Shown here: piece by piece, positions 13,982 through 51,797 of the stretch
Numbering within the stretch: the first letter of the stretch is position 1
Layout: each line of letters starts with the position of its first letter
NCBI GenBank assembly: GCA_043823125.1
Contig: JBDRBC010000437.1
Location: 1-52,702, forward strand
DNA: 52,702 bases
Reading direction: 5' to 3'
DNA from: a bacterium
GTDB lineage: Bacteria > Krumholzibacteriota > Krumholzibacteriia > LZORAL124-64-63
Notes under the pieces: generated by a model
Database searches by the model: none
What the model was told of the DNA's origin: nothing
What the model saw: only the letters and a program-made list of their open reading frames with translations
Position numbers and translations under genes: made by a program

Positions 13982-15487
13982 CTACAACTCGTAGCGCTTG
14001 ATCTTCCGATACAGGGTTCGTTCACTGATGCCCAATCTTGCGGCGGCCTGCCGGCGCCGCCCACCGGTCGCTTTGAGGGCGGCTTCGATGAGGGCTCGCT
14101 CCGCTGTCTGGAGATCGCCCCCTTCCGAAAAGGCCACCGGGCTGTAACCGGTGGCGCCGGAATAGGTCTCCACCACCTGCTCGCCGTACGGTATGGCCTG
14201 ACCGGTGGCGCCCGGCATTGTGCCCAGCAGCGCCGCCTTGATGGCCTTGATGTCTGTACGGAGTTCGAGCAGGGTGGCCATCATCAGCTCCCGCTCCAGG
14301 CTCTCACGGTCACGCTGGACCGGCACCGGCAACTTGCTGCCCAGGGCGGGCGTGCCGGCGAAACGAATCTCCGCCGGGAGATCCGCCAGCTCGATCATTC
14401 CCGACTGCTTGAGTACCGCCGCCGCCCGGATGACATTCCGGAGCTCCCGGATGTTGCCCGGCCAGGAAAACTCGGTCATCCGTTCCAGCGCCGGCCGGGA
14501 AATCCCCCGCACCGACAGACCGTGCTCCTGGTTCTCCAGCTTGATGAAGGTCTCGGTCAGGACCGGGATATCGCTCGGTCGATCGCGAAGTGGCGGGGTG
14601 GGGATCACGATGACCCGCAGTCGATAGTACAGGTCCTGGCGGAAACGTCCCTCCTCCACCTCCAGCGCCAGATCGCGATGGGTGGCCGCCACGAACCGGA
14701 TGTCGCTCCGGAGTGTCTGCCGTCCACCCACCGGGTTGAACTCACCGGTCTCCAGGGAACGGAGGAAACGGGTCTGCATGCCGAGCGGCATCTCTGCCAC
14801 TTCATCCAGGAACAGGGTGCCGCCGTCCGCCCGCTTGAACACCCCGTCGTGGGCGGCGACCGCGCCGGTGAAAGCGCCCCGCGCATGCCCGAATAGCTCA
14901 CTCTCCAGAACGCCTTCGCTCATGGCGCCGCAATTGACGCTGAGGAACGGCCCGGTGGCTCGCGACGAGTGGGCGTGAATGGCCCGCGCCACCAGTTCCT
15001 TGCCGGTGCCGCTTTCTCCCAGAATCAGGATGTTGACATGGATGGGCGCCGCCTGGGCGATGAGCGAGATCATCTCCGACACCGCGCGTGATCGTCCCAC
15101 GATCCCGCTCCGTTGTCTGACCTCGCGCAGTAACAGCAGCCGCTGGATGACCCCCCGCAACTCGGCGGCCGTTACGTCCACTGGCAGCAGCCGGCTGGAC
15201 CCGATCCGTGACTGCTCTTCCCAGTCGGACAGGATGCCTTGGTCGCCGAGTACTACCAGATCCGAATCTCCCCGCAGGGAGAAGAACTTCCGGATGACGT
15301 GACGATGACGCGTGTATTCCGAGGTATCGAACAGCAGCATGACGGACTGTCCAGCCGCCACCTCGGCCAGCGCTTCGGAAGGCGAGTCGTACAGGTAGAG
15401 TTCGACCTCCGGCAACTGCCAATCGGCCACCTCCTTGTACAGAGCCGGCCGGCGGCTGAGAACAACCAGTGGCTTCTTGCTCGACAT
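13982..15487 (-). CDS. Sigma54-dependent enhancer-binding protein with degenerate receiver-like N-terminus
   Basis: GESGTGKE, ESELFGH, GAFTGA, LFLDEV, WPGNIREL and a Fis-type HTH (LGISERTLYRKI). Confidence 0.93.
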   Translation of the reverse strand: MSSKKPLVVLSRRPALYKEVADWQLPEVELYLYDSPSEALAEVAAGQSVMLLFDTSEYTRHRHVIRKFFSLRGDSDLVVLGDQGILSDWEEQSRIGSSRLLPVDVTAAELRGVIQRLLLLREVRQRSGIVGRSRAVSEMISLIAQAAPIHVNILILGESGTGKELVARAIHAHSSRATGPFLSVNCGAMSEGVLESELFGHARGAFTGAVAAHDGVFKRADGGTLFLDEVAEMPLGMQTRFLRSLETGEFNPVGGRQTLRSDIRFVAATHRDLALEVEEGRFRQDLYYRLRVIVIPTPPLRDRPSDIPVLTETFIKLENQEHGLSVRGISRPALERMTEFSWPGNIRELRNVIRAAAVLKQSGMIELADLPAEIRFAGTPALGSKLPVPVQRDRESLERELMMATLLELRTDIKAIKAALLGTMPGATGQAIPYGEQVVETYSGATGYSPVAFSEGGDLQTAERALIEAALKATGGRRRQAAARLGISERTLYRKIKRYEL

Positions 15488-15592
15488 CACGCTCCGCCTG
15501 GGTTGAAACAGCCTCAGCACATATCGCGACGTAGCGGATAATACAACGATCCGTCGTGGTTGCCAGGGAAAAACCGGGGAAACACGCCAGAG

Positions 15593-16563: not shown

Positions 16564-17058
16564 CTACAGTTGACTCGCCTTAAAGACATATTCGACCTCT
16601 CCCCCCCACCGCTTTAGGGAGGATTCGGAATTCGGCTCCCCAGACGATTCCGACCCGACGGCCACTCGCTCCAACCGGTCGGCGGCGCTGTGCAATCGGT
16701 GCAGGAGGCTGGAGAGAAGTGCGTCGGGATTCGGCTGTGGCTCGCCACCGGTCATGAACTGCTGATTTTCCGCCAGACGGTGTTTTTCCTGCATATCCTC
16801 GGCCTCCCTCTGATATGCCGACAGGACATTCTGGATATCCGGATAATTCCGTGGGGTGCCCCGGGGTTCCGGTGATGACGGTTCCAGCAGCTGGTTCTTC
16901 ACCACGGTGACCACTGGTTTCCGCCAGCTTCTCCAGACAGCGCGCAACCGCCAGATGCAGCCGCCAACCGTTAGGGAAACTCCGGCGACCATCAAGATAA
17001 GCGACAGCCAGAATCCCAAGCCGTTACCGCTGTGCAGATAATCATGAATCACATTCAC
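16564..17058 (-). CDS. Hypothetical single-TM protein in the fliA operon (possibly SwrB/DUF6115-like)
   Basis: N-terminal hydrophobic helix. It fills the gap between co-oriented genes. Confidence 0.65.
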   Translation of the reverse strand: MNVIHDYLHSGNGLGFWLSLILMVAGVSLTVGGCIWRLRAVWRSWRKPVVTVVKNQLLEPSSPEPRGTPRNYPDIQNVLSAYQREAEDMQEKHRLAENQQFMTGGEPQPNPDALLSSLLHRLHSAADRLERVAVGSESSGEPNSESSLKRWGGEVEYVFKASQL

Positions 17059-17077: not shown

Positions 17078-17422
17078 TCACGCCCGCGTGTCGATGTTCA
17101 AACCGATCTCCTGGGCCGTATCGGTCTGTTCTTCTGCATCGTTCTCCTCACCGGTCTGTTCTGCGGCCTGCTGCTTCTTCTCTTCCTCTGCCGCTTCCTG
17201 CTGAGCCCGCTGGCGGTCCTTCTCCGCATCCGGATCGATCTTCCCCTTGTCGGCCTTCTCGGCCTTCTTGACCCGGTTGACTTTCAGATCCTTGCTTTGA
17301 CCGACCTGCTCCGAAAAGGTCGTTGTGTTCTGATTGGCCTGCTGCTGGCTCTTCACCTGCGTACGCGCAACGTTGCCGAGCTGCGAGAGGGAGGTCTGAA
17401 GGGATACGCCGTCCGCGGCCAT
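17078..17422 (-). CDS. Hypothetical charged protein of flagellar operons (C-terminal GxxIDxxA)
   Basis: RBS present, Q/K/E-rich, ends GLNIDTRA, directly downstream of fliA. Confidence 0.8.
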   Translation of the reverse strand: MAADGVSLQTSLSQLGNVARTQVKSQQQANQNTTTFSEQVGQSKDLKVNRVKKAEKADKGKIDPDAEKDRQRAQQEAAEEEKKQQAAEQTGEENDAEEQTDTAQEIGLNIDTRA

Positions 17423-17452
17423 GATCTCACCGCCTTGCCGTCAGGCTCACTG

Positions 17453-18418
17453 CTATATGGGCGGTCCGAGCCCAGCCCCGAGAGCCAGTAATCCGGTCGG
17501 AATCAGCACGGTCAACGAGACCAGGACATCCACGGGCGACGGTTTCTCGGCCGAACTCGTCGGCAAACTCACCGGCTTGTCCCGCTTCACCGTGGCCTGC
17601 TGATTCTTCTGCTGAATTTCTTCCGTGATGCGCCCGATGGACATCTTGCCTTCGTGGCGTCTGATCTTACCCTGGAGTCGCAGTATGGCCTTGGTGTGGA
17701 CCTGGCAAACCCGGGATTCGGTAACATCCAGAATCTCCCCGATCTCCTTCAAGGTGAGTTCCTCGTAGTAATACAACACGAGGACGAGCTGTTCTTTTTC
17801 CGGAAGCTCCGCCAGCCGCTGGGAGATGAGGGTTCGCATCTCCTGTTCGGCGAGCATCTTCTCCACATCGTCGGAACGAGGGTCGGCGAGATACTCGCCG
17901 AGGTTGGTGGGCTGCTCGTTCTCGTCCCCGGTGGTGTCGGCATCCAGGGACATGATACTGGCCACCGCCACTTCCCCGAGCATGTCGTCCAGTTCACGCA
18001 TATCGACGCGGAGTTTCTTGGCCACTTCGCGGTCGGTGGCGGGACGGCCCAGCTTGACCTCAAGGGTGGAGTAAGCCTCTTCGAGTTGCTTGGCCTTGCG
18101 ACGCAGGGAACGCGGGAACCAGTCCTGACTCCGCAACTCGTCGAGGATGGAACCCCGGATTCTCGGGATAGCGTAGGTTTCGAACTTGATACCACGCTGA
18201 TGGTCGAAATTGTCGATGGCCTGGATCAGTCCCAGCAGTCCGGCCGAGATCAGGTCGTTGAATTCCACGTAATGCGGTAAGCCGATGGCCATGCGGCCTG
18301 ATACGTATTTGACCACTTTGACGTACTGCTCAACGAGCAGCCGACGCGCATCCTGATCCCCATGCTCCAAGTGCTGCTGCCAGAGTTCGTAATGAGCTAT
18401 CCGCACGTTCTGGGACAT
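17453..18418 (-). CDS. fliA: FliA/WhiG family sigma28 factor with hydrophobic C-terminal extension
   Basis: DLISAGLLGLIQAIDNFD, KFETYAIPRIRGSILDELRSQDWFPRSLRRK and LYYYEELTLKEIGEILDVTESRVCQVHTKA. Confidence 0.96.
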   Translation of the reverse strand: MSQNVRIAHYELWQQHLEHGDQDARRLLVEQYVKVVKYVSGRMAIGLPHYVEFNDLISAGLLGLIQAIDNFDHQRGIKFETYAIPRIRGSILDELRSQDWFPRSLRRKAKQLEEAYSTLEVKLGRPATDREVAKKLRVDMRELDDMLGEVAVASIMSLDADTTGDENEQPTNLGEYLADPRSDDVEKMLAEQEMRTLISQRLAELPEKEQLVLVLYYYEELTLKEIGEILDVTESRVCQVHTKAILRLQGKIRRHEGKMSIGRITEEIQQKNQQATVKRDKPVSLPTSSAEKPSPVDVLVSLTVLIPTGLLALGAGLGPPI

Positions 18419-18538: not shown

Positions 18539-18778
18539 TCAGCCATTCTTCGAGGCAGTGGTCGCGGGCTTGTCCGCCACCGCCGCAATTTTGGTCTCCT
18601 GCTCGGCGTGAACGCCGATCCGGTAGGCCAGCATCAGGATCGAGCCGACGAAATAGAAGACCAGGTACGAAATGACCGCCCGTTTCAGGACCATAAGCAG
18701 GGTGTGATTTCCCCAGAGCCCGGCGATCACCGCCACCAGGGCAGCCGCCAAAGCTATGGTGTTGACCAATCTCTGCAT
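18539..18778 (-). CDS. Small two-TM hypothetical membrane protein
   Basis: 79 aa with two hydrophobic helices and a GGAG RBS, located between flhF-like and fliA. Confidence 0.8.
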   Translation of the reverse strand: MQRLVNTIALAAALVAVIAGLWGNHTLLMVLKRAVISYLVFYFVGSILMLAYRIGVHAEQETKIAAVADKPATTASKNG

Positions 18779-18792
18779 CCGAGTGGCTCCAT

Positions 18793-19950
18793 CTAGGCTT
18801 CAGCAGCCTCGGCTGACTGAACCCCTTGGTGTTTCAGAATCAGGTCGGCCAGCAGTTCCGACTCGGCGAGGAATGGCTCCTGCTCCGGCCACGGTCCCAC
18901 CGTCCCCAGGGAAAACGGCAACTGCAATCTGCTCTGCAGGTCCAGGATCTTGCCGGGCCCCCGGCTACGGTCCAGTCGAGTCAGCACGGTCCAGTCGCAG
19001 TTCCAATGGCGAGCCGCTTCCCAGTACTTGCTCCCATTGATCAAATCGATGTCCAGCGGCACCACGAAATGCCGGTGAAACATTTCATTTTGCGCGATGA
19101 AGCATTGCAATTCGCCCGCTTCGAGGAATGCCGACGAGAACACGGAAGGTGTATCGATGAGGACCGCCTCGTATCGAGCCATATGCTCTGTAACGCGTGC
19201 AATTTGCTCTCCGTGCTTGATAATGGCGGCGTCGTAACTGTGTTCAGCTGCTTCCAGCTGGAGCCGCCTGACCTCGCCACCGTGTTTCGGTAGCAAATTC
19301 AAAACCAGAACATTGCGATCGGCCCGACGAAGCATGGCGGCCAGTGCCAGGATGAGGTCACTCTTCCCCGCAGCGTGATCTCCCAGGAAGACGTGACAGC
19401 CGCCAAAATTTTGCCAATCGCTCTGCCCGGCGTGGATGGAACCACGCAGGTGCTTCACGGCCGCGGGCAGATTGCTCTCCCCCCCTGCAACTTCTGCCGC
19501 GAAAGCGCTGGCCAGCCGCCGGACGCTCTCCAGGGACGCCCCGGCGGCGAGTAACGGCGTGGCCAGCGGGTACTCGTGCAGCTCGGCAGCCATCGCGTGA
19601 GCCGGGTGGTTCCGCCCCGCCAGTTGCTGGACGAGACGTTCGATGCGAGTCACTTCACTCTCGATCACCTTGACCAGATCGTGGGAACCTGTCTCGGATC
19701 GCGGTCTCACATCCGGCGCCGAAAGGGCAGACAGGGTTGGTTGCGGGCGGCCGGTTTCAACCAGGACCTCCACCATCTTCTCCTGGCCGAGTCCGGCTTC
19801 CTGCCGCTGGTGAATCGTCCGGCTCTGGACGATCCGCACTTCCTCGCCGTACCGCATCTGGGCTTCGCGGAGCGCTTCCTGCAGCGTCGGTGCGCGCACG
19901 GCCGCCTGGTTTCGCTTAGCCGACGGCCGACTCTTCCTGTTGGATTCCAT
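18793..19950 (-). CDS. flhF: FlhF-like SRP-family protein with degenerate GTPase motifs
   Basis: Follows flhA. FlhF-type N-terminus (APTLQEALREAQMRYGEEVRIVQSR). Motifs GDHAAGKS, LIDTPS and LTRLD. Confidence 0.8.
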   Translation of the reverse strand: MESNRKSRPSAKRNQAAVRAPTLQEALREAQMRYGEEVRIVQSRTIHQRQEAGLGQEKMVEVLVETGRPQPTLSALSAPDVRPRSETGSHDLVKVIESEVTRIERLVQQLAGRNHPAHAMAAELHEYPLATPLLAAGASLESVRRLASAFAAEVAGGESNLPAAVKHLRGSIHAGQSDWQNFGGCHVFLGDHAAGKSDLILALAAMLRRADRNVLVLNLLPKHGGEVRRLQLEAAEHSYDAAIIKHGEQIARVTEHMARYEAVLIDTPSVFSSAFLEAGELQCFIAQNEMFHRHFVVPLDIDLINGSKYWEAARHWNCDWTVLTRLDRSRGPGKILDLQSRLQLPFSLGTVGPWPEQEPFLAESELLADLILKHQGVQSAEAAEA

Positions 19951-22045
19951 CGGTCACCACCGTTCCTGCCGCCTGGACCCGGGCGGAGGCCGCAACCTCC
20001 GAATAACCCAGAACGGCCAAGTTTGGGTAAGTTGGTTCGATCAATCGCTTCATGAACAGTCGAATGGGCGACGGCACCATCAGTACCGGCGGATGCCCCT
20101 GCGCGTAAGCCTGGCGCAGGGTCGCATCGAGCTTGCCCAGGTATTCCTGGGTGAACCTCGGATCGAGGATCAGACCCCCGGTCTGATCCGAGTTCTGCGC
20201 TGCCCGCATGAACTGCTGCTCGGTGAAAGGATGCAGGGAGATGGCGTGGATCCTGCCGTCCGATTCGGTGAACAGACTGGAGATGGTCCTCGCCAGCGCC
20301 TCCCTGACTTTTCCCGTCAAGTAATCCGCGGTGGTGCTTGGCGTACAATGATTTGCCAGGGTCTCGAGGACGGTCGTGATGTCCCGGACCGGCACCCGCT
20401 CGTGCAGGAGCGAGCGCAGGACATTGTGGAGAATGTTGACCGGAACCTTGTCGGGAATGATCTCTTCCACCAGCGCCGGAGCGAACTCGCGAACCGACTC
20501 GCACAGATCCTTCACGTCCTGGCGCGACAGGATCTCGCCGGCGTTGCTGCGGATCACCTCGGAAAGATGCGTGGACAGAACGGCGGTCGGTTCCACCACC
20601 GTGTAACCTTCCATTTCGGCCGTCGTTTTCCGGTCGGGCTCGATCCAGACTGCCGGCAGATTAAATGCCGGCTCCACGGTCTGGATTCCGTCGATGGAAT
20701 CGCCGTCCGGAGTGGTGCACATGGCCAGCAGCCGATCCGGCAGCAAGGAACCACGCGCGATCTCTACTCCCTTGAGCTTGATGTTGTAATCGTTGGCGTC
20801 CAGTTGCAGGTTGTCCCGGACCCGGATGGGATGGATGAAGATGCCCAGTTCGGTCCCGAGCTGGCGCCGGATGCTGCCGATTCGTTGCAGCAGGTCGCCG
20901 GCCTTGGATTCGTCTACCAGGGGAATGAGACCGTAACCGATCTCCAGCTCCAGCCGGTCGGTGATGAACAGCTCCTCGCTCCAATCCGACGGCGCCTCCG
21001 CCACCGGCGGCAGGGAGGCTGCCAGGGCCTCATCCTCGGTCTCCTGGTCCAGCTTCTTCACCCGGTTTCCCACCACGTAAGCCAGGCCGGCGATGATACC
21101 GGCCAGGAGCAGGAACGGTATCGTCGGCAGCCCCGGAATGAGAGCGAACAGCACCAGGGTTCCCGACGACAGGAAGATGGCCTTGTTCTGCCGGAAGAGC
21201 TGCAGGGTCAAGACCTGTCCCAGGTTCATACTGCTCGACTGGCGAGTGACCACGAGACCGGCGCTGGTGGATACCAGCAGGGCCGGGATCTGACTCACCA
21301 GCCCGTCGCCTACGGTGAGAATGGTGAATCGGGCCAGGGACTCGCCGGCCTCCATGCCCATCTGGAGCATGCCGATGATGAAGCCGCCGGCGATGTTGAT
21401 CAGAGTGATGATGATGCCGGCGATGGCGTCCCCACGCACGAACTTGCTGGCACCGTCCATGGCGCCGAAAAACTCCGCTTCGGCAGCGATTGCCGCCCGG
21501 CGTGACCTGGCTTGCTGCTCGTCGATGAGGCCGGTGTTCAGATCGGCGTCGATGGCCATCTGCTTGCCCGGCATGGCGTCCAGGGTGAACCGCGCCGCCA
21601 CCTCGGCGATGCGGCCCGACCCCTTGGTGATCACCATGAAGTTGACGATGATAAGGATCACGAAAACGATGACGCCGATGACGTAGTTGCCGCCCACCAC
21701 GAAGTCGCCGAAGCTCTGGATGACCTGCCCCGCGGAAGCGTTGGAAAGGATGAGCCGGGTGGAAGCCACGTTCAGCGACAGCCGAAACAGGGTGACGATG
21801 AGCAAGAGGGACGGGAAGGCGGAAAAGTGCAGCGGCTCCTTCAAGTAGAGTGAGACCAGCATGATCACCACGCCGAAGGCGATGCTGAAGGTCAGCAACA
21901 GATCGAGTAGTAACGGCGCCACCGGCACCACCAGCAGCCCGAGAATACTGACCACCCCGATGGCGCTCAGCACGTTGGTGTTGGCCAGAATCAGATCGCG
22001 ATCGATGCCTTTTTCCTGCTTCAAGAAATCTCCTCGTCGCGTCAC
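19916..22045 (-). CDS. flhA: Flagellar export gate protein FlhA
   Basis: LFRLSLNVASTR, RIAEVAARFTLDAMPGKQMAIDADL and GDGLVSQIPAL. Confidence 0.98.
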   Translation of the reverse strand: MTRRGDFLKQEKGIDRDLILANTNVLSAIGVVSILGLLVVPVAPLLLDLLLTFSIAFGVVIMLVSLYLKEPLHFSAFPSLLLIVTLFRLSLNVASTRLILSNASAGQVIQSFGDFVVGGNYVIGVIVFVILIIVNFMVITKGSGRIAEVAARFTLDAMPGKQMAIDADLNTGLIDEQQARSRRAAIAAEAEFFGAMDGASKFVRGDAIAGIIITLINIAGGFIIGMLQMGMEAGESLARFTILTVGDGLVSQIPALLVSTSAGLVVTRQSSSMNLGQVLTLQLFRQNKAIFLSSGTLVLFALIPGLPTIPFLLLAGIIAGLAYVVGNRVKKLDQETEDEALAASLPPVAEAPSDWSEELFITDRLELEIGYGLIPLVDESKAGDLLQRIGSIRRQLGTELGIFIHPIRVRDNLQLDANDYNIKLKGVEIARGSLLPDRLLAMCTTPDGDSIDGIQTVEPAFNLPAVWIEPDRKTTAEMEGYTVVEPTAVLSTHLSEVIRSNAGEILSRQDVKDLCESVREFAPALVEEIIPDKVPVNILHNVLRSLLHERVPVRDITTVLETLANHCTPSTTADYLTGKVREALARTISSLFTESDGRIHAISLHPFTEQQFMRAAQNSDQTGGLILDPRFTQEYLGKLDATLRQAYAQGHPPVLMVPSPIRLFMKRLIEPTYPNLAVLGYSEVAASARVQAAGTVVTDGIQQEESAVG

Positions 22046-22068: not shown

Positions 22069-23130
22069 CTAGGCCCGTTTCAGTCGATAGACGTAGGCCA
22101 GGATCTCGGCCACGGCCCGGTAGAGTGATTCCGGAATAAGGTCGCCGAGTTGAGCCTTGCGATAGAGCGCCCGCGCCACCAGCTTGTTCTCGATGATCGG
22201 CACCCGGCTCTGCCGGGCGATCTTCTTGATGGTCTGCGCCAAGCTGTCACACCCCTTGGCCACCACTCGCGGCGCCGGCTCGCCCGGCTTGTACCGCAAC
22301 GCCACGGCGAAGTGCTCCGGGTTGGTCACGACCACATCGGCCGTGGGGATCGCCGACAGCATCCGTCTACGCGCCATCTCCAGCTGGATGTGCTTGATAC
22401 GGGCTTTGATCTGGGGATCGCCGTCCAGGTCCTTCCGCTCCTGCTTCACCTCGGCGCGGGTCATCTTCAGGCTTTCCTCGTACTGATACTTCTGGAAGAT
22501 CCAGTCGATGACGGCCAGGACCATCACGAACACCAGCAGCTTGAAGATGAGCAGCAGGAAGATGTGCTTGCCCATATCGGTGATCACGTCCAGCGACATC
22601 AGCGGCGCGCTGATGATCCTGTGCACCTGGCCCTTGACGGTGATGAAGGCCAGGAACGCCAGGATGGCGATCTTCACCAGATTCTTGCTGATCTCGAAGA
22701 ACGCCTTCTTGCCGAAGAACTTCTTCATTCCGGTGAGGGGATTCAGCTTGCTGAACTGGAAGGACATGGCCTCGGTGCTGAAATTGAAGCCGATCTGCAG
22801 CAGATTCGCGGCCAGCCCCACGATCAAGATGCCAGCCACCATGGGCGCCAGCGCCTTGAGCATCTGCAGCATGTTGCCGCTGGCGATGTCGCTCAGACCG
22901 AACACATTGCCGGGGCAAAACATATGCGCCTGGGAAAAGAGGTACGAAGCATTACGCGTCAGGACTCCGGAAATATGTCCGCTGCTCAACAGCAACAGGG
23001 ACATGCCCGCCACCAACACGAAGAAACTGTTCACTTCCTTGCTCTGAGCGACCTGCCCCTTCTTGCGGGCGTCCTGCCGCCTTTTGGGGGTTGCTTGTTC
23101 TGTGCGATCGGCTCCAGAATTTTCCGCCAT
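22069..23130 (-). CDS. flhB: Flagellar export switch protein FlhB
   Basis: RTEQATPKRRQDARKKGQV, DGDPQIK and ADVVVTNPEHFAVAL. Confidence 0.98.
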   Translation of the reverse strand: MAENSGADRTEQATPKRRQDARKKGQVAQSKEVNSFFVLVAGMSLLLLSSGHISGVLTRNASYLFSQAHMFCPGNVFGLSDIASGNMLQMLKALAPMVAGILIVGLAANLLQIGFNFSTEAMSFQFSKLNPLTGMKKFFGKKAFFEISKNLVKIAILAFLAFITVKGQVHRIISAPLMSLDVITDMGKHIFLLLIFKLLVFVMVLAVIDWIFQKYQYEESLKMTRAEVKQERKDLDGDPQIKARIKHIQLEMARRRMLSAIPTADVVVTNPEHFAVALRYKPGEPAPRVVAKGCDSLAQTIKKIARQSRVPIIENKLVARALYRKAQLGDLIPESLYRAVAEILAYVYRLKRA

Positions 23131-23178
23131 GCTTCACCTCCTCTCCGTTGTCGGCTGACGGTCCACCCGCCGCCGGGC

Positions 23179-23973
23179 CTACATCAATGCCGTCAGCAAG
23201 CGCACCAACCGCTCTTCCATGTTCGCCCCCGCGGACAGGAAGACATCCTTGAAAAAAACCAGGGAAAGCCCGAAGGTCATCAAACCGGCAGCGATGCGGA
23301 TGGGGAACCCGACGATCAGGACGTTGATCTGCGGGACGGTCTTGACGATGACGCCCATGGTGGCGCTCACCAGCAGCAGCACTATGATACACGGCGCCGC
23401 GATGCGTAGACCGATATGAAAGACCGAGCCGAATTCCTTGAGCATGATCCAAGACGCCGCGCTCCCGTCCACCGGGGCGAACAGCGGCACGACGGTGCAC
23501 GACTGCACCAGTCCGATGACCACCGCATGGTGGGCGTTCACGGCGAAAAACAGGAGACTGCCCAGCAGATAGTAGATCTGGCCGATGACGGATATCCGCG
23601 CCCCGCTCTGGGGATCCACCGTGTTCACGATGGCGAAGCCCACCTGCACGCCCAAGACCTGGCCGGCGAACTTGACCGCCGTGAACGGCAGCCCGATGGC
23701 CAGGCCGAGCAGCATACCCACCAATACCGAGCGACCGAATTCCGCCACCAGCTCCGGCCAGCCGATGTGGAGATCCGCCAGCGACAGGTTGTGCGCCACC
23801 ACCGGCGCCGTGGCCAGGCCGATGACGCAGCCCAGCGCGATGCGCCAGGCGATGGGCACGCTCCGGTGTCCCAGAAACGGCAGGGTCACGCTCAGAATCG
23901 TGAACCGCAGCATCAGCACCGCCACGATGGCCAGATAGGTCAGCTGTACCTGGATCTCCAAAAGGTCCCCCAC
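23179..23973 (-). CDS. fliR: Flagellar export protein FliR
   Basis: Hydrophobic, with AGQVLGVQVGF and KTVPQINVLIVGFPI. Gene order fits. Confidence 0.95.
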   Translation of the reverse strand: MGDLLEIQVQLTYLAIVAVLMLRFTILSVTLPFLGHRSVPIAWRIALGCVIGLATAPVVAHNLSLADLHIGWPELVAEFGRSVLVGMLLGLAIGLPFTAVKFAGQVLGVQVGFAIVNTVDPQSGARISVIGQIYYLLGSLLFFAVNAHHAVVIGLVQSCTVVPLFAPVDGSAASWIMLKEFGSVFHIGLRIAAPCIIVLLLVSATMGVIVKTVPQINVLIVGFPIRIAAGLMTFGLSLVFFKDVFLSAGANMEERLVRLLTALM

Positions 23974-23974
23974 C

Positions 23975-24238
23975 TCACATGGCTGCTAGACGGTCGAAGA
24001 TGGAGACGGTGAAGCTGGTGACCTGGTTGATGATCCAGGGCAAAGCCAGGATCATGGTCACGAACACCGTGATGATCTTCGGCACGAAGGTCATGGTCAT
24101 CTCGTTGATCTGGGTCGCCGCCTGAAAGATGCTGATGAGCAGACCCACCAGCATGCCGGCCAGCAGCATGGGGCCCGCTACCAGCAGCACCGTCCGCACG
24201 GCTGACTGTCCGATCTCGATCACTGTTTCCGGAGTCAT
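23975..24238 (-). CDS. fliQ: Flagellar export protein FliQ
   Basis: GLLISIFQAATQINEMTMTFVPKI. Confidence 0.97.
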   Translation of the reverse strand: MTPETVIEIGQSAVRTVLLVAGPMLLAGMLVGLLISIFQAATQINEMTMTFVPKIITVFVTMILALPWIINQVTSFTVSIFDRLAAM

Positions 24239-24272
24239 GTCGCTCCTTCTCCCGGTGTCACCAACCCCGACG

Positions 24273-25064
24273 CTAGGTCTGAAAGGCCAGGACGAGGGAC
24301 TTGACCACCAGGAACCAACCGTCCACCAGCACGAACAGCAACACCTTGAACGGGAGGCTGATCAGGATGGGCGGCAACATCATCATGCCCATGGACATGA
24401 GCACCGAGGCCACGACCATGTCGATGATGAGGAAGGGAATGAACAGGATGAAGCCCATCTGGAAGGCGATCTTGAGTTCACCCAGCACGAAGCTCGGGAT
24501 GATCACCAGCATGGGCAGATCTTCGGGACTGTCCGGCGTCTCGGTGCTGGTCAGCTCTATGAAGAGCGCCAGCTCCTTCTCGCCGGTCTGTTGCAACATG
24601 AATTCCTTGATGGGCGCCTGAGCCAGGGCCAGTGCCTCGGACTGCTCGATCTCCTGAGCCAGGAACGGCTGCAACGCCTCTTCGTTCACCTGGTGGAATA
24701 CCGGCCCCATGATGATGAAGGTCAGGAAGAGGGCGAGTCCGATGACGATCTGGTTGCCGGGCATCTGGTGCGTGCCCATGGCCTGGCGCAGGAAGCCGAG
24801 CACGATGATGATCCGGGTGAAGCTGGTGAGCAGGATCAACATGGCCGGCGCCAGCGAGATGAGGGTCATCATCGCCGCGATCTGCAGCGCCACGTTCCAG
24901 CTCGCCGGGCTTTCGACCCCTTCGAAGGACACGGTCAGGGCCGGCGGCATTGCGGTCCCACTGTCCGGGGCGGTCGGATCCTGTCCCCAGGCCAAACCAC
25001 TGCCAAACAGCAACAACGACCCCACGGTCGCCATCAGTACCAGTCGTCTCGTGACCCTTGGCAT
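24273..25064 (-). CDS. fliP: Flagellar export protein FliP
   Basis: TSFTRIIIVL, IPFLIIDMVVASVLMSMGMMMLPP and LFVLVDGW. Confidence 0.98.
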   Translation of the reverse strand: MPRVTRRLVLMATVGSLLLFGSGLAWGQDPTAPDSGTAMPPALTVSFEGVESPASWNVALQIAAMMTLISLAPAMLILLTSFTRIIIVLGFLRQAMGTHQMPGNQIVIGLALFLTFIIMGPVFHQVNEEALQPFLAQEIEQSEALALAQAPIKEFMLQQTGEKELALFIELTSTETPDSPEDLPMLVIIPSFVLGELKIAFQMGFILFIPFLIIDMVVASVLMSMGMMMLPPILISLPFKVLLFVLVDGWFLVVKSLVLAFQT

Positions 25065-25119
25065 TCCCTGTCTCCTGCCATCATCGGCCCGTGCGCACTA
25101 TTCTTTCCAGAGGTCAAAA

Positions 25120-25135
25120 GGCAATGGCTATGCCA
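25120..25135 (-). promoter_or_regulatory. Sigma54 promoter of fliPQR-flhBA-flhF
   Basis: TGGCAT-AGCCA-TTGCC, with an IHF-like AATCAA element ~70 nt upstream in an AT-rich patch. Confidence 0.8.
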
Positions 25136-25318
25136 AGGGGGGCGCGTCGTTTCCCGGTGATGAGTTGTCGGCAGCAGTGGGGATCTGACTCGCTATCTTG
25201 TTGATTACTAATCAGTTGAGTTGTCTGCTAAAAGAATGCTTTGGATATGCGGGACCGGTTGTTCAGGCATGTGAAATGGAGTCGGCCGGGAACCGGCCAA
25301 AACATGGTCAGCTTCGGA

Positions 25319-25774
25319 TCAGCCCGCGGGAAGTTGCTCGCCGGCGGCGGGGGAATCCAGACGACCCATCGGGACGGTCTGGGCCGGTCGCACGAGACCG
25401 TTCAATCGGGTGAGTAGTCCGGGCAGCACGCCGCCGCCCCGGGCGTCCTCTGTCGACGCCGTGGCGGCATAGTCCGCATGGGGTTCCGTGCCGAGCAACA
25501 GCAGGGCCGACTCGTGGCGGTAGATGTAGTGCACCGTGTCCCGCAGCCGCAGAATCTGCACCTCCGCCCGATGACCGAGGGGCAGCACCCGCAACAAGAC
25601 GGCGTCCCCTTGCCGCTGCTTCCCGTGCCAGCGACCGAGCAGGCGCATGAACAGCACCAGCAGGGCGAAGACCACCAGGATACCCCCGACGGCTTGCCAC
25701 CAGGAGAAGCCGGCCAGCGGCCAGCTGCCGCCTCCCAGTTCCGTCAACGGTCCCGCTGTGGTGGCCAGGAACAT
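25319..25774 (-). CDS. fliO: Flagellar protein FliO
   Basis: One TM followed by LLRVLPLGHRAEVQILRL, located between fliN and fliP. Confidence 0.8.
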   Translation of the reverse strand: MFLATTAGPLTELGGGSWPLAGFSWWQAVGGILVVFALLVLFMRLLGRWHGKQRQGDAVLLRVLPLGHRAEVQILRLRDTVHYIYRHESALLLLGTEPHADYAATASTEDARGGGVLPGLLTRLNGLVRPAQTVPMGRLDSPAAGEQLPAG

Positions 25775-26205
25775 CAGAGGATCCTCTTCAGACGTTCGAC
25801 CCGGTTGAGCAGCTTGATGATCCGGATTGCGAAGTGATCGTCCAGGACCACCACCTCGCCGGTGGCAAGCAAGGCGTCGTTCACCAGGATATCTACCGGT
25901 TCGCTGGTCTGCTTGGACAGCTCCACGATGGAACCGGGCGACAGGTCGAGCACGTCCCGGAATTTCATGCGGGCGCGTCCGAATTCCACGGTGACCTTGA
26001 GATTCACATCCAGCAGCATCTCCAGATTCTTGGGATCGGCCACTGTGTCCTGCAGGTCCTGGGTCAACGAATTCGGTTCCGGAGTCGCCGTCCTCTCCTT
26101 GTCCACGGTGGGAATCGGCGACGCTTGGCTTGCTTCAGGATTATCTGTTTTGGCGGTACTGTTGTCGGTTTCGTCGAGCACGCCAATGACATCGTCTTCA
26201 GCCAT
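25774..26205 (-). CDS. fliN: Motor switch protein FliN
   Basis: SpoA domain LLDVNLKVTVEFG...GEVVVLDDHFAIRI. Confidence 0.96.
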   Translation of the reverse strand: MAEDDVIGVLDETDNSTAKTDNPEASQASPIPTVDKERTATPEPNSLTQDLQDTVADPKNLEMLLDVNLKVTVEFGRARMKFRDVLDLSPGSIVELSKQTSEPVDILVNDALLATGEVVVLDDHFAIRIIKLLNRVERLKRIL

Positions 26206-26208
26206 TAC

Positions 26209-27246
26209 TCACTCCTTGTTCATCCGCTGGGTCAATTTCACGGCCCGCTGCTGGTGAATCCTCCCGGCCTCACCGATGAAGACCAGCTTGTCGGCCACTT
26301 CCACCAGCATGGGACTATCCACCGGTTGCGTCAGGTGCAGGATGTCCCCTTCTCTCAACTGCGTGATCGTTTCCAGATTGGTCTCCATCTCGGCGAGTTT
26401 CACCACGATCTCGGTACTCGTGTTATTGAGCACATCCATGATGTGGCGTCGCTCCTGCCTGACCTCGTGCGGCGCCCGCATCTCCCGCCGTTCCTGGGGA
26501 TCGAAAACGTCACGTACGGGCGCGAAACTCGACATGGGGATACAGACGTCCAGGTCACCCGTCTGCATGTCCAGGGTGAACTCGAAGCTGAGCACCACCA
26601 GGGTATCGCCGGAGGCCACGCCGGCGATGTAATCGGCGTTGTTCTCCAGCACCACCAGCTCCGGGGTCACCGTGATCAGTCGGGAGCACGCCTCTTTCAA
26701 GACCTCCAGGAGTCGGGACAACAGTCCCTGCACGATGGTCCGCTCGATCTCCGTGTACTCCCGGAGATTCTCCTCGGGCTCCACGGCGCCACCCATGAGT
26801 TTCTTCACCAGGGTGTAGCAGAAGCTCAGGTCCAGATTGAGCACCGAGCGGCCCTGGAACGGCGGCATGGTGAACGTGGAGATACAGGTCGGTTTGGGCA
26901 GACGGTCCAAATATTCGCCACACGGCGCCAGGGTGACTCCCTTGAACTCCAGGGCGCTGTTGGCCCGGAACAGGTTCGTGAAGGAGATGGCCGCGGCCTT
27001 GGACAGGTTCTCGCCCACGCTGCGCAGATTCTGCTCGAAGATTCGGGAGATGTCGTGGGGCTGGGTGAAATCGAACGCCACTTCCACACCCGCGCCCTGG
27101 TCCAGTCCACTGGACTCGGCGTCGAGCAGATCATCCAGATCGTCGCCGAACGGATCTTCGCCGTCGTTCTGCTGCGCTTGATCTTTCGCGCCAATGATCT
27201 CGTCGTCAGACACGCCGTTTCCTCGCTGTGGCTCCGGGTCTGCCAA
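26209..27246 (-). CDS. fliM: Motor switch protein FliM
   Basis: FDFTQP, LMGG, REYTEIE and a C-terminal SpoA domain. Gene order fliL-fliM-fliN. Confidence 0.92.
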   Translation of the reverse strand: MADPEPQRGNGVSDDEIIGAKDQAQQNDGEDPFGDDLDDLLDAESSGLDQGAGVEVAFDFTQPHDISRIFEQNLRSVGENLSKAAAISFTNLFRANSALEFKGVTLAPCGEYLDRLPKPTCISTFTMPPFQGRSVLNLDLSFCYTLVKKLMGGAVEPEENLREYTEIERTIVQGLLSRLLEVLKEACSRLITVTPELVVLENNADYIAGVASGDTLVVLSFEFTLDMQTGDLDVCIPMSSFAPVRDVFDPQERREMRAPHEVRQERRHIMDVLNNTSTEIVVKLAEMETNLETITQLREGDILHLTQPVDSPMLVEVADKLVFIGEAGRIHQQRAVKLTQRMNKE

Positions 27247-27276
27247 TCGCCGGCGAACCGGCCGGCCGATCCGCTC

Positions 27277-27804
27277 TTACTGGATGACCAGTTCCGAGAA
27301 ATAGATGTCGCAGAGTGCCCCAGGCGGCAGCTTCTCGGCCAGCTTGCGCATGATCTCCGCCCGCGCCGCCAGATTGCCCTCCGGAGTTGTCAGTTCCCTC
27401 GCACGCTTGTTCGACAAGGCGAGTATCACGGTATCACGGAGCTGCGGTAAGCGGAGCATTACCTGGTCCGCCGCCGCCTGATCCACCACCTCGAGATTGA
27501 CCTCGATCCGCAGATAACTGGGGATGTCGTCATCGCTCTGCAAGGTGATGATGAGTTCCTCCAGTCCCACGATGATGCCCGGCTCGTAGTCCACCAGATC
27601 CTGCCCCGCGGCGTCGTTCATGGCGGCCAGGGCCGGATCCTGGAACTGCAATTTTGGCACGAGGACGAACTGGGTCAGACCGATGGCCAGCACGGCCTGT
27701 ACCACCACGATCACGCCGAGCAGCACGACCTTGTTCTCCAGCAGGCCAACCTTCTTCTCGCCCGATCCGGCGTCATCTTGTGCGTCCTGTTTCGCGTCAG
27801 CCAT
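27277..27804 (-). CDS. fliL: Basal body-associated protein FliL
   Basis: Single TM, PQLRDTVILALS and IYFSELVIQ. Confidence 0.93.
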   Translation of the reverse strand: MADAKQDAQDDAGSGEKKVGLLENKVVLLGVIVVVQAVLAIGLTQFVLVPKLQFQDPALAAMNDAAGQDLVDYEPGIIVGLEELIITLQSDDDIPSYLRIEVNLEVVDQAAADQVMLRLPQLRDTVILALSNKRARELTTPEGNLAARAEIMRKLAEKLPPGALCDIYFSELVIQ

Positions 27805-40864: not shown

Positions 40865-42235
40865 TCAGCTAGGAATCTTCACGCCCAGCTCGTGGTAGAG
40901 GTGCAGCTTGTTCCGCAAGGTCCGCACGCTGATGCCGAGTTCCTGTGCGGCCTGGGTCCGGTTCCCGTTGGTCTTGCGCAGCTTGCGCAGGATCAACTCG
41001 CGCTCCATGTCCTTGAGGGTCATTTCGCCGCCGATTTCCAGCTCGCCATCGACGCCGTTCATCTCGTCGGCGAGATTGAAGATGGCCTCGTCGATGACCG
41101 GCCCCCGGCTCATGATCACTGCACGTTCGATGACGTTCTGAACCTGCCGTACATTGCCGGGCCAGTCCAGCCGCACCAGATTGGTCAACGCCTTCTCGCT
41201 GATTTCCAGCAAGGCCTTGCCGTTCTCGGCGCAGAATGTGTCCAGGAAATGACTGACGAGCAGCGGGATGTCCTCTTTACGTTGGCGTAGCGGCACGATG
41301 GTCATGGGAATGACATTGAGCCGGAAGAAGAGGTCCTCGCGGAAACGTTTCTCGCGAATCTCGGTGCGGAGATTACGATTGGAGGTGGCGATGATGCGGA
41401 CGTCGGCCTTGGTGGAGAACTTGGCCCCCAACCGCATGAATTCCCGCTCCTGCAGCACCCGGAGCAGCTTGGCCTGCATGGCGAACGGCATCTCGCTGAT
41501 CTCATCCAGCAACAGGGTGCCACCGTGGGCCAGCTCGAACTTTCCCTTGCGCGCCTGGACTGCTCCGGTGAAGGCGCCCCGTTCATAGCCGAACAGCTCG
41601 GATTCCAGCAGTGTTTCCGGGATGGCCGCACAGTTGAGACGGATGAACGGCCCGTGGCTGCGCGATCCAGACTGATGAATGGCCCGCGCCGCCACTTCCT
41701 TGCCGGTGCCACTCTCACCCAGCAGCAGGACAGTGCCCCGGGTGTCGGCGATCATGCTGATCTGTTCCCGTAACTGCACGATGGCGGGGCTGTTACCCAG
41801 CAGCCCCCAGTGTTCACGTTTTTCCTGCAAATTGCGCCGGAGTGACTTGTTCTCCGCCTTCAGCTTCCGCATCTCGAACGCCCGCTGCAGGGTGTGATCG
41901 AGCTGGTCCAGACCGAACGGTTTACTCAGATAATCGAAGGCGCCGCGTTTGGTGGCGGCCACCGCCTCCTTGATGGTGCCGAAAGCGGTCATGATCACCA
42001 CCACCGGCGGCTGGGGCAGCTTCGCCTGGATCTCGTCCAGCAAAGCCAATCCGTCCCGCCCCGGCATGCGGACATCCGAGAGCACCAGGTCCACCGGTGA
42101 ATCGATGAGGATCCCGATCGCCTCGGCGCCATCCTTGGCGGTGGTCACCTGGTAGTTGCTCGCCAGGGAAGCGAACAGGAAGTCGCGCATGGTCTGCTCG
42201 TCATCAACCACGAGGATGCTGGGCTTCTTCACCAT
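40865..42235 (-). CDS. Sigma54-dependent response regulator (FleR/FlrC/FlgR-like)
   Basis: Intact REC domain (VVDD, SDVRMP, KPF), GAFTGA and HTH GISVRTLRNKL. Directly upstream of flgB. Confidence 0.95.
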   Translation of the reverse strand: MVKKPSILVVDDEQTMRDFLFASLASNYQVTTAKDGAEAIGILIDSPVDLVLSDVRMPGRDGLALLDEIQAKLPQPPVVVIMTAFGTIKEAVAATKRGAFDYLSKPFGLDQLDHTLQRAFEMRKLKAENKSLRRNLQEKREHWGLLGNSPAIVQLREQISMIADTRGTVLLLGESGTGKEVAARAIHQSGSRSHGPFIRLNCAAIPETLLESELFGYERGAFTGAVQARKGKFELAHGGTLLLDEISEMPFAMQAKLLRVLQEREFMRLGAKFSTKADVRIIATSNRNLRTEIREKRFREDLFFRLNVIPMTIVPLRQRKEDIPLLVSHFLDTFCAENGKALLEISEKALTNLVRLDWPGNVRQVQNVIERAVIMSRGPVIDEAIFNLADEMNGVDGELEIGGEMTLKDMERELILRKLRKTNGNRTQAAQELGISVRTLRNKLHLYHELGVKIPS

Positions 42236-43011
42236 CGTTCGTTTATCCTTCCGTTCAGAGTGCTCGCGGTGACAGCGGGCGGAATGTCCGCCACTTCCAT
42301 CACGACGCTGGTGCCCCCGCCGTCGTCGCTGGCGATGGACCAGGCCAGTCCGTACATATCCATCACGGTATCCACTCGGGCCAGACCGATACCGAGGTGC
42401 CCGGCCTTGGTGGTCACGAAGGGATCCGCCGCCTTGGCAGCGAGTTCGGGGATCATGCCCGGACCGTTATCCTCGATCCGCAGTGCGAGCCGGTCTGCGC
42501 CAGAAGGTTGGATCGAGAAACGTACCCGGAGCGGGACTGTCGCTGGCTTGGTCGACCGGCCCTCGGCGCTGTTGCACAGGATCTCCTGCACAGCCATTTC
42601 CAGATCGCGGGCCGGCAACAAGAGGGGACCGGTGGACCGGGTGGCCAGCTCGATGCAGAGCTGGGGATACCGCTGGCGACAGCGGTTTGCCGCCAGGGCC
42701 AGCACCACTGTGAGATCTTCACCGGAAACTTTCTGGTGGTTCGGAAACGCCATCTCCTGGACGGAGGCGTAGATCTGTTCCATCCGCTCGACTTCCGCGA
42801 GGATCCTGGCGGCGTAACGCGCCAGCTGCTCGTCCGGATCGGCCGCGGCGATGAGGCCGGCGTAGCCCTTGATGCCGCAGAGACTGTTGCTGGTCTTGTG
42901 CAGATACCCGTGCAACAGCCGCGTCTGCCGCCCGGTGACCAGCGCCGGCTGAACGCCGGTCTGCTCGCCGGCACGGGATGGTTCCTGTAGACAGGGCGCT
43001 GTTTCCATCAT
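42229..43011 (-). CDS. Sensor-less histidine kinase-like protein with atypical H-box
   Basis: LHKTSNSLCGIKGYA, and HATPase boxes EILCNS, DNGPG, PFVTTK, GIGL. The ATG overlaps the upstream stop. Confidence 0.85.
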   Translation of the reverse strand: MMETAPCLQEPSRAGEQTGVQPALVTGRQTRLLHGYLHKTSNSLCGIKGYAGLIAAADPDEQLARYAARILAEVERMEQIYASVQEMAFPNHQKVSGEDLTVVLALAANRCRQRYPQLCIELATRSTGPLLLPARDLEMAVQEILCNSAEGRSTKPATVPLRVRFSIQPSGADRLALRIEDNGPGMIPELAAKAADPFVTTKAGHLGIGLARVDTVMDMYGLAWSIASDDGGGTSVVMEVADIPPAVTASTLNGRINERW

Positions 43012-43403
43012 TGGGCACTCATCTTCTGCAGCAGGTAGCGGTCGGTCTCTTCCTCGCAGCACAGGATCTGTTCGATGAGTGCGCTGACCTGGCGCAAGAC
43101 CTTGTGCAACTTGGCCTGCCCTACACTGCTCCATTTTTCCTTGCCATTCTCCCAGAGCGAGCGGGCGCCGCCATCGGCCTTCTCCAGCCGATCGATGCGG
43201 TCGAGGCAGTCCCGTTTCTGTTCGAGAATGACCCGGATTTCCAGTAGGTCGCCATCACGCCGCACCGTGGTCCCTTGCTGACGACTCAGCTCCAGGACCT
43301 GCTGATACAACCGAACCTCCTCGGCGTAGAGGCCGAGCAGATTCTGCAGCAACCGCCCCTCCTGGGCAGCCTGGTCAGGGCCGGAAAAACGCGGCTGTGC
43401 CAT
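43008..43403 (-). CDS. FlgN/FliT-like helical export chaperone
   Basis: Helical pattern LYQQVLELSRQQ...LEQKRDCLDRIDRLE, 131 aa, flagellar context. Confidence 0.65.
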   Translation of the reverse strand: MAQPRFSGPDQAAQEGRLLQNLLGLYAEEVRLYQQVLELSRQQGTTVRRDGDLLEIRVILEQKRDCLDRIDRLEKADGGARSLWENGKEKWSSVGQAKLHKVLRQVSALIEQILCCEEETDRYLLQKMSAQ

Positions 43404-48829: not shown

Positions 48830-49204
48830 TCAATCGAGCAGTGTCTCCAATTTCTTCAGAACGGCGCCGAGCCGGCCGGCCACATCCTGGCGAACCTCAT
48901 CGGAATTGTAGTACCCCGATTCCAGTCGCTCCCGGGCCTGGGCAATCCGGTCCTGACGGACATCGGGAACGGACTCCATGGCGCGCTGCCCGGCTTTGTG
49001 CAGCGTGCTCAGGTCCTCCAGTTTCCGGGCATTCTCGGATATCTCGGCCCGATCGGCGGGGGCGGATCCCGGCCCTACATTGAGCGTCCCGTCATCCGGG
49101 GACCCGGTTTCGTTCTGCCGACGGGTTTTGCCGGCACTCTTCTGGAACTGTTCCAGGATTCCTGGCTGTACATGCGATGGCCTGTCGATGTTGTTCATGG
49201 CCAT
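48830..49204 (-). CDS. flgM: Anti-sigma28 factor FlgM
   Basis: DRAEISENAR...VPDVRQDRIAQARERLESGYY...DVAGRL, with a sigma28 promoter upstream. Confidence 0.9.
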   Translation of the reverse strand: MAMNNIDRPSHVQPGILEQFQKSAGKTRRQNETGSPDDGTLNVGPGSAPADRAEISENARKLEDLSTLHKAGQRAMESVPDVRQDRIAQARERLESGYYNSDEVRQDVAGRLGAVLKKLETLLD

Positions 49205-51769: not shown

Positions 51770-51797
51770 TAAAGGTCTCGCCGCTCCGTGTCGATAA
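51770..51797 (+). promoter_or_regulatory. Sigma28 promoter of flagellin
   Basis: TAAA-N16-GTCGATAA. Confidence 0.85.

Follow-up and report, generated by a model that had tools for sequence, protein, structure and literature searches.

A conserved C-terminal extension ending in a hydrophobic helix in the flagellar sigma factor FliA of a Krumholzibacteriota family

The flagellar sigma factor FliA (sigma28) and its anti-sigma factor FlgM are the textbook example of gene expression coupled to the assembly of a machine, and FliA is regarded as a soluble protein. In the canonical FliA/FlgM system (1rp3, 6pmi, 6pfv; Salmonella), FliA ends 3–13 residues past region 4.2. Here we analyze the fliA gene carried on a 52,702-nucleotide stretch of DNA (contig JBDRBC010000437.1 of assembly GCA_043823125.1, from a bacterium of the class Krumholzibacteriia), which we refer to at its full length as the window. 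The locus resembles the canonical system in the sigma28 core recognized by the NCBIfam model TIGR02479, in the presence of flgM in the genome, in a sigma28-type promoter-like site ahead of the flagellin gene and in the placement of fliA behind flhA and an flhF-like gene. It differs in that the FliA frame runs on past region 4.2 to a terminal hydrophobic helix, an extension that we found to be conserved across the Genome Taxonomy Database (GTDB) family to which the window belongs and whose last helix is a candidate membrane tether.

Several described systems keep transcription regulators at the membrane. The Bacillus sporulation factors pro-sigmaE and pro-sigmaK are membrane-kept and activated by proteolysis, their pro-sequences being N-terminal, and ToxR and CadC, which are not sigma factors, regulate transcription while bound to the membrane. 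In the RseA–sigmaE system, with DegS and RseP, sigma activity is held at the membrane by a single helix whose N-terminus faces inside; that helix is on the anti-sigma factor, whereas the FliA helix is on the sigma factor itself. Same-chain C-terminal additions are known from extracytoplasmic function (ECF) sigma factors (ECF41/42-type, and ECF263 with five or seven predicted transmembrane (TM) helices), as PMC7826278 describes. ECF factors form group 4 and lack region 3, whereas the FliA described here is a group 3 factor with a single terminal helix; the presence of region 3 places it outside the ECF sigma factors. Within flagellar control, Fluke (Flk) of Salmonella and E. coli is a tail-anchored regulator of the export switch, according to PMC13344023. 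The natural tail-anchor hydrophobicity range given in PMC6794478 covers the FliA tails considered here, but Flk is not a sigma factor, its anchor has a reported grand average of hydropathy (GRAVY) of 2.83 that exceeds the FliA-tail family median of 1.72 (mean Kyte–Doolittle hydropathy over 19 residues, KD19), and the likeness is functional. A literature search on membrane-anchored or tethered FliA or sigma factors returned no paper describing a membrane-anchored FliA, and the accessible part of one Krumholzibacteriota paper mentions flagellar genes and not FliA. FliA is not known from earlier work to carry a conserved tail with a terminal hydrophobic helix.

The sigma28 core and its C-terminal module

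The gene and its parts are as follows, with residue numbers referring to FliA.

17453..18418, minus strand: fliA open reading frame (ORF) of 321 residues plus stop, encoding sigma28 with a C-terminal extension (ORF list, Pfam, NCBIfam)
17660..18418, minus strand: canonical sigma28 core, residues 1–253, with regions 2, 3 and 4 (Pfam, NCBIfam, solved FliA/WhiG chains)
17609..17659, minus strand: conserved helix following region 4.2, residues 254–270, RHEGKxSIG(Q/R)(I/L)TxEI (alignment, AlphaFold2 (AF2))
17537..17608, minus strand: polar, charged and variable linker, residues 271–294 (tail alignment, AF2 predicted local distance difference test (pLDDT))
17456..17536, minus strand: motif and hydrophobic helix, residues 295–321, VDVLVSLTVLIPTGLLALGAGLGPPI (hydrophobicity windows, AF2, conservation)

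By sequence, FliA is a member of the FliA/WhiG subfamily: it scores 264 bits against TIGR02479 (FliA_WhiG), over the curated cut-off of 189.6 and across residues 28–252, and all three sigma regions are present, with Pfam Sigma70_r2 at residues 28–100, r3 at 109–169 and r4 at 202–249. The region 3 match, at 24.8 bits, is slightly below its cut-off of 25.3. FliA is the only protein of the genome (87% complete) above the TIGR02479 cut-off. Solved sigma28 and WhiG chains align with residues 11–253, the query match ending at residue 250–253, and these chains themselves finish a few residues past the aligned part. Beyond residue 249 there are no Pfam matches at an E value of 0.01 or better.

Region 4.2 ends with HTKAILRLQGKI (residues 241–252), after which the frame continues for 69 residues, RRHEGKMSIGRITEEIQQKNQQATVKRDKPVSLPTSSAEKPSPVDVLVSLTVLIPTGLLALGAGLGPPI, to a stop codon at 17453–17455. 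The next ORF starts at 17420–17422, 30 nt downstream, and is preceded by AAGGCGGTGAG. The tail consists of three parts. The first, with the family consensus xRHEGKxSIG(Q/R)(I/L)TxEI, contains five residues, R254, E256, G257, S260 and G262, that are invariant among 66 aligned sequences. The second is the linker, which varies in length and contains no conserved column in the tail alignment. The third (residues 295–318, VDVLVSLTVLIPTGLLALGAGLG) begins with the family consensus (E)PVN(V/I)MA(C/G)L.L and continues for about 15 uncharged residues; in FliA itself the uncharged stretch VLVSLTVLIPTGLLALGAGLG spans residues 298–318 and is followed by PPI and the stop. The AF2 single-chain model, which is weak overall (mean pLDDT 68.8, with region 4 at ~47–55), places helices at residues 261–277 and 295–314, the latter with 10-residue block means of 66, 84 and 77, and gives the linker a pLDDT below 50 at residues 279–290.

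Conservation within the third part was counted over 156 unique tails, drawn from 188 (157 unique after four truncated or run-on tails were dropped, and one further tail left out for lack of a match to the anchor pattern). At the start of the motif, V1 is found in 128, N2 in 133, V/I in 143, M in 105, A5 in 151, C/G/A in 142 and L7 in 115. Farther along, L9 is found in 112, Q/P/H/N at position 11 in 133, L/I at position 12 in 113, L16 in 113 and W18 in 81, and the tail commonly finishes ..G.GG.WPG... Positions 5, 9, 12, 16 and 19 form a stripe, A5-L9-L12-L16-L19, with a 4-3-4-3 spacing.

Read-through past a lost stop, a frameshift or an assembly error could also extend a frame in this way. The source is a fragmented metagenome-assembled genome of 663 contigs, 87% complete, and frame errors do occur in this region in four relatives (G069, G050, G102 and G070). 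Such an origin is ruled out by conservation, the same architecture recurring in 83 of 88 species and 28 genera, and we give it practically no weight. The third-codon-position G+C content (GC3) points the same way: at 0.76 the tail is on a par with the core (0.75), as against 0.61 and 0.45 in the two other frames of the tail. Contigs assembled from other sequencing runs cover parts of the region (X1, 17215–17567; X3, 17325–17474 and 17506–17656; X4, from an RNA library, 17314–17482), and they contain no insertions or deletions relative to the window. Contig X1 carries five substitutions, those inside fliA being P307S and two synonymous changes, and the substitutions within fliA across all contigs are A312A, S294S, P307S, P282Q and T163S. 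All of the contigs are short and of low depth, and no single one covers the whole of fliA, so that conservation is the stronger argument; the runs contained only small shares of the words (0.07–0.20), and the parts of the gene left uncovered are uninformative. The first-pass annotation of this DNA had described a frame extending past region 4.2 as a polar linker and an uncharged stretch of ~21 residues that ends three residues before the stop, and had argued from its GC3-rich codons and from the proximity of the next gene that it was not read-through junk. That description and its coordinates are borne out. Two of the checks it proposed, for a lost stop or indel near 17660 and for relatives that end after region 4.2, gave the same answer: neither a stop nor an indel is seen where the independent contigs cover the tail, and the relatives within the family carry the tail and its hydrophobic end.

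The GTDB family comprises 91 species genomes in 28 genera, in which FliA was called at E values up to 1e-60. FliA is present in 88 of them, the remaining three genomes being 84, 75 and 85% complete. The 3′ end was read in all 88, with three loci corrected by eye (L025 and L172 intact, L174 frame-shifted), and the tail is intact in 83. Among these 83, the frame runs beyond the usual stop in G068 and G047 and the helix is shorter in G073. In the other five, G006 stops after ..KVNVTV, G070 stops within the motif, and the frame changes right after the motif in G102 and G050 and ahead of it in G069. A database search gave a matching picture: the best 120 of 5815 matches (E up to 0.001) are all 303–331 residues long and all extended, and 119 of these 120 have the hydrophobic end, the exception (P0082) stopping after ..PVNVLV. 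The related records are mostly titled Candidatus Krumholzibacteriia or Krumholzibacteriota, with some titled uncultured Fibrobacteraceae, Gemmatimonadales, Latescibacterota or bacterium.

Outside the family the tail is absent. All five class relatives examined have only 23–40 residues after region 4.2 and no hydrophobic stretch, their maximum KD19 there being −1.58 to 0.37, and two of them (L026 and L027) have a weaker counterpart of the first tail helix. A pattern scan of species genomes yielded 80 loci, of which 43, all tailed, are from the same lineage and overlap the family genome set, so that they are not independent. The other 37 are from other phyla, and in every one of these FliA ends 10–20 residues past the matched region 4.2 motif, that is, 3–13 residues beyond region 4.2. 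The gene probably encodes a working sigma28 that acquired this C-terminal module in the ancestor of the family.

A profile of the tail searched against 1.84 billion representative proteins gave 19 matches. The nine that were inspected revealed no further protein family with the tail: six are FliA C-terminal fragments or chimeric or frame-shifted calls, one is a frame fusion of FliA with the ORF that follows it (orf114, below), and two are repeat proteins. The other ten are mostly 41–186 residues long and align to the same tail positions. From the matches inspected, the module appears specific to the FliA of this family. A six-frame search of the window's own genome with a hidden Markov model of the hydrophobic end recovered FliA itself alone (E 0.5), with noise below it, so the end does not act as a C-terminal sorting signal shared by other proteins of this genome. 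A PDB sequence search with the tail profile gave no matches at E up to 1, and an ESM Atlas search with residues 255–321 gave no usable feature match, with template-modelling scores below 0.5 in all structure rows.

The G006 genome (98% complete, 2.9 Mb) retains FliA but cut directly after the motif (VNVTV, stop), and flagellin (PF00669), FlhA (PF00771) and orf114 were not found in it. Its locus (L013, G006:C16) keeps the flhF-like gene and fliA, with an HDOD gene directly after, and has lost the hydrophobic helix, orf114 and orf164 (the second gene after fliA). Retention of the hydrophobic helix is tied to possession of a flagellum in this single case, and sigma28 may be retained in G006 for non-flagellar targets.

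Variant frames were also seen. In L151 (G047) and L140 (G068) the fliA frame passes the usual stop, which in G047 gives an in-frame FliA–orf114 fusion, and in P0129 the two proteins are fused through a frameshift; these may be assembly errors or real variants. In P0128, a metagenomic protein of 210 residues, the start of the tail motif, QQVNIMAGL(A/T)LC.., occurs four times within Cys- and Arg-rich repeats, and the repeat may be a translated DNA repeat.

A tail-anchor-like helix and its alternatives

Hydrophobicity was assessed in sliding windows, with Kyte–Doolittle (KD), Hessa and Eisenberg scale values entered by hand. The best 19-residue window of FliA lies at 298/299, with a KD value of 2.03 and a Hessa-type sum of +1.48. 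On the same measure, membrane helices encoded in the window score −3.44 (FlhA), −1.78 (FliF), −0.65 (ComEC), −0.30 (MotA), −0.06 (orf79), +0.13 (orf164) and +0.91 (MotB), whereas ten of its soluble proteins reach +4.9 to +11.4 in their most hydrophobic windows. Over its full length FliA has its best KD and Hessa windows at 298/299, finishing three residues short of the stop, the rest being a soluble sigma fold. FliA has the predicted architecture of a tail-anchored protein: one hydrophobic helix, placed at the very C-terminus, with neither a signal peptide nor a second TM segment.

Across 145 family tails, duplicates kept, the KD19 values range from 1.24 to 2.52 apart from two truncated tails, and 90 are at 1.6 or above. 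Hessa-type sums are at or below 1.5 in 33 and at or below 3 in 74. The uncharged run has a median length of 24 residues, 122 of the 145 best windows are free of charge, and a median of six residues follows the window. The 12 residues ahead of the motif have a K+R density of 0.165 per residue and a D+E density of 0.155; past the first 22 residues of the segment these fall to 0.013 and 0.007. Hydrophobic moments are low, 0.03–0.28 in the tails listed, so the helix is not amphipathic. PMC6794478 reports that natural tail anchors span GRAVY values of 1.03–2.83, that C-terminal TM domains of 1.04–1.57 suffice for tail-anchor insertion in E. coli, and that the threshold for such insertion is much lower than for internal helices. 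By that yardstick the tails, with a KD19 of at least 1.24 when intact and a family median of 1.72, lie in the range of natural anchors and may insert. We favor the reading that the terminal helix is a tail-anchor-like membrane tether of sigma28 and put its probability at roughly 0.5.

A number of observations weigh against a tether. The family median Hessa-type sum of +3.0 is borderline and above that of every bona fide TM helix of the window, and 15 of the 145 tails, two of them truncated, exceed +4.9. The upstream flank has no net positive charge, because its D+E density nearly equals that of K+R. At least one charged residue falls within residues 3–20 after the motif start in 28 of 83 species, most of which belong to one subgroup of several genera with a tail ending ..PPMIKLAAVLLDLQVPLRT. 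The 26 such tails classed (..LALPPMIKLAAVLLDLQVPLRT) have Hessa-type sums of +2.4 to +8.7 (median 5.7), values that alone would not earn a TM helix call. This subgroup (..VNIMAGLALPPMIKLAAVLLDLQVPLRT) carries a Lys and an Asp/Glu seven residues apart on one helix face. No membrane partner was seen to co-vary, the helices of the neighboring orf79 containing no acidic residue specific to the Lys-bearing subgroup. Three small ORFs next to fliA, described below, occur also in tail-less relatives. Finally, passive anchors seldom show conservation as strong as that of the motif and the Leu stripe, which fits a protein-binding helix equally well. The earlier annotation's view of the tail as membrane-like is partly supported: the segment in the FliA of the window is membrane-like on two scales, with its KD19 of 2.03 and Hessa-type sum of +1.48, and the family median sum, the charged species and the conserved motif speak against a simple anchor. 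The tethering at the basal body, the proteolytic release and the second checkpoint that it also proposed are putative.

These same features suggest a less likely alternative, namely that the terminal helix is a protein-binding element outside the bilayer, docking into a groove of a partner or folding back on sigma28 as a cis-acting inhibitor. Possible partners, named with similar reserve, would include the cytoplasmic domain of FlhA or another part of the export gate, FlgM, RNA polymerase and the small neighboring proteins. Conservation of VN(V/I)MA(C/G)L and of the A5-L9-L12-L16-L19 stripe is what helix–helix packing predicts, the charges found in the third part of the tail in 28 of the 83 species count in its favor, and so does the Lys–Asp/Glu pair on one face in the ..PPMIK.. 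subgroup; ECF sigma factors with cis-acting C-terminal regulatory extensions are also known (PMC7826278). Against it, the helix bears no charge on its other faces (C, T, S, Q, Y, W, A) and has a low moment, which would be unusual for a solvent-exposed helix, the tail contains no FlgM (PF04316) or other Pfam match, and no PDB chain resembles it. A FlgM-type anti-sigma domain fused in cis was considered and rejected, there being no PF04316 or other Pfam match past residue 249 (E ≤ 0.01). A predicted complex of the core (1–258) with the tail (259–321) scored 0.01 and 0.00 against a mark of 0.32; the prediction was made without controls and has no bearing on fold-back. The conserved motif and stripe, together with the charges, fit packing of the helix on another helix, be it within the membrane or inside the groove of a protein. 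The uncharged faces and low moment favor a lipid or intramembrane setting over a solvent-exposed docking helix, and we therefore rank the membrane tether first.

Exposed hydrophobic C-termini can also serve as degrons. The tail might accordingly be mainly a degradation signal for a cytoplasmic or membrane AAA+ protease, setting the turnover of sigma28 unless masked, with the disordered linker (pLDDT below 50 at residues 279–290) as a protease handle. We consider this improbable: degrons are short, whereas ~25 residues are conserved here over 28 genera, in a helical pattern and at a constant distance from the C-terminus.

On the tether reading, membrane tethering is probably a property of FliA throughout the family. 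Of the three parts of the module, the short conserved helix, the flexible polar linker (~20–40 residues) and the terminal hydrophobic helix (~20 residues), the last would insert with its N-terminus inside and at most ~11 residues outside. Sigma28, and hence the sigma28–FlgM complex, would then be leashed by ~25–40 residues at the cytoplasmic membrane near the flagellar export gate. Since sigma28 is the secretion chaperone of FlgM, as stated in PMC3372961, a tether would position the complex near that gate. Sigma28 might act while tethered or be released by cleavage, and we make no choice between these. Given the conserved motif, the central Q/P/H position and the Leu stripe, we expect the helix to be recognized, whether by a partner helix or a membrane protease; VN(V/I)MA(C/G)L and the stripe point to specific recognition rather than passive anchoring.

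Release by cleavage can be modeled on RseA. RseP cleaves RseA between Ala108 and Cys109, while substrates whose periplasmic parts are large are kept out by the PDZ domains of RseP (PMC10024687). If the FliA helix is inserted, the stub outside would be 0–11 residues long, and the motif places Ala-(Cys/Gly/Ala) at positions 5–6, the Ala being present in 151 of 156 tails; this likeness to RseA is a lead only. An M50 site-2 protease gene is present in the genome, and the near-invariant Ala followed by Cys/Gly/Ala, the helix-weakening Q/P at mid-helix and the short stub would suit such a protease, a pattern that is compatible with cleavage and not diagnostic of it. That FliA is a true tail anchor near the export gate, cut by an intramembrane protease within VN(V/I)MA|(C/G)L as RseA is at Ala|Cys, is an unlikely proposal. 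Were it correct, late flagellar transcription would require two events, FlgM export and proteolytic release, and no group 3 sigma factor before FliA would have been tethered to the membrane and freed by proteolysis. With a tether alone, group 3 would join the ECF group among the membrane-tethered sigma factors. The hydrophobic helix, fixed across the family and cut off in the one genus in which flagellin and FlhA were not found, suggests control beyond FliA–FlgM coupling, acting either in space, at the membrane or the export gate, or through proteolysis.

Flagellar genes of the window

The window is a flagellar region, with flhA, the flhF-like gene and the fliA cluster accompanied by rod, hook, motor and export genes. 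On the minus strand the order is flhA, flhF-like gene, orf79, fliA, orf114, orf164, an HDOD gene and a sigma54 activator gene, and farther along the window lie motAB, hook and rod genes, fliF, fliI, fliJ and a two-component sigma54 pair.

19916–22045, minus strand: flhA, in the flagellar cluster upstream of the flhF-like gene
18793..19950, minus strand: flhF-like GTPase gene upstream of fliA (TIGR03499 44 bits, cut-off 174; SRP54 18 bits, below cut-off)
18539..18778, minus strand: orf79, 79 residues and two hydrophobic helices, flanked by the flhF-like gene and fliA (no Pfam or NCBIfam match)
17078..17422, minus strand: orf114, 114 residues, directly downstream of fliA (no Pfam or NCBIfam match)
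16564..17058, minus strand: orf164, 164 residues with one N-terminal hydrophobic helix (KD19 2.03 at residue 18), two genes after fliA
13982–15520, 40865–42235 and 42229–43134, minus strand: two sigma54 activators and a histidine kinase
48830..49204, minus strand: flgM, encoding the anti-sigma28 factor, 124 residues (PF04316 31 bits, above cut-off)
51770..51797, plus strand: sigma28-type promoter-like site, TAAAGGTC-N12-GTCGATAA, ~170 nt upstream of the flagellin start at 51966

The flhF-like gene is, as read from its sequence, a divergent FlhF. In polar flagellates flhG often occupies the slot between flhF and fliA. No MinD/ParA-type gene was found in the window, and the ParA-family matches elsewhere in the genome may or may not include FlhG. 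One of the two sigma54 activators has no receiver-domain match, and the other has a receiver domain and adjoins the histidine kinase; the activators suggest a sigma54-then-sigma28 flagellar hierarchy as in polar flagellates. Between flhA and motAB, the five largest ORFs, at 22150–27450 (plus strand) and 25319–25774 (minus strand), encode 419, 198, 343, 151 and 538 residues and have no Pfam match; they were chosen by length, and the strands may be wrong.

The first-pass annotation had also placed a FlgM in the window and intact sigma28 promoters at both the flagellin gene and flgM. The FlgM is indeed encoded there. Of the promoters, judged against the sigma28 consensus, the one upstream of the flagellin gene (Flagellin_N match at 51978–52385) was recovered, with one site observed against 0.07 expected and 7 of 100 shuffles reaching one; the region upstream of flgM matches the consensus only loosely.

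Three small conserved proteins surround FliA. Homologs of orf79 keep its position in 26 of 30 loci, the tail-less L026 and L027 among them. For orf114, phmmer found homologs in 22 of 30 loci, and visibly similar ORFs follow fliA in L025–L027, L029 and L030. Its sequence looks largely disordered. The N-terminus is conserved and resembles M.GDGVSLQTTLAQLGNVAKTQ, runs rich first in Arg and then in acidic residues follow, and the C-terminus has a conserved ..G.L(I/V)D(T/L)(R/K)A. The protein may be secreted or have a regulatory role in the flagellum. Homologs of orf164 were found by phmmer in 10 of 30 loci, with ORFs of like build in L025–L027, L029 and L030. In Bacillus, swrB is placed behind sigD. 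The orf164 product recalls SwrB in its size, its N-terminal anchor and its position behind the flagellar sigma gene, an N-terminal anchor being described for SwrB in PMC13344023. We considered whether orf114 and orf164 co-occur with the tail and rejected this, like ORFs being found downstream of fliA in the tail-less L026, L027, L029 and L030. Such ORFs are present in tail-less class relatives, so orf79, orf114 and orf164 predate the tail and are not tail-specific. As conserved small proteins around fliA, the three are candidate parts of the same control.

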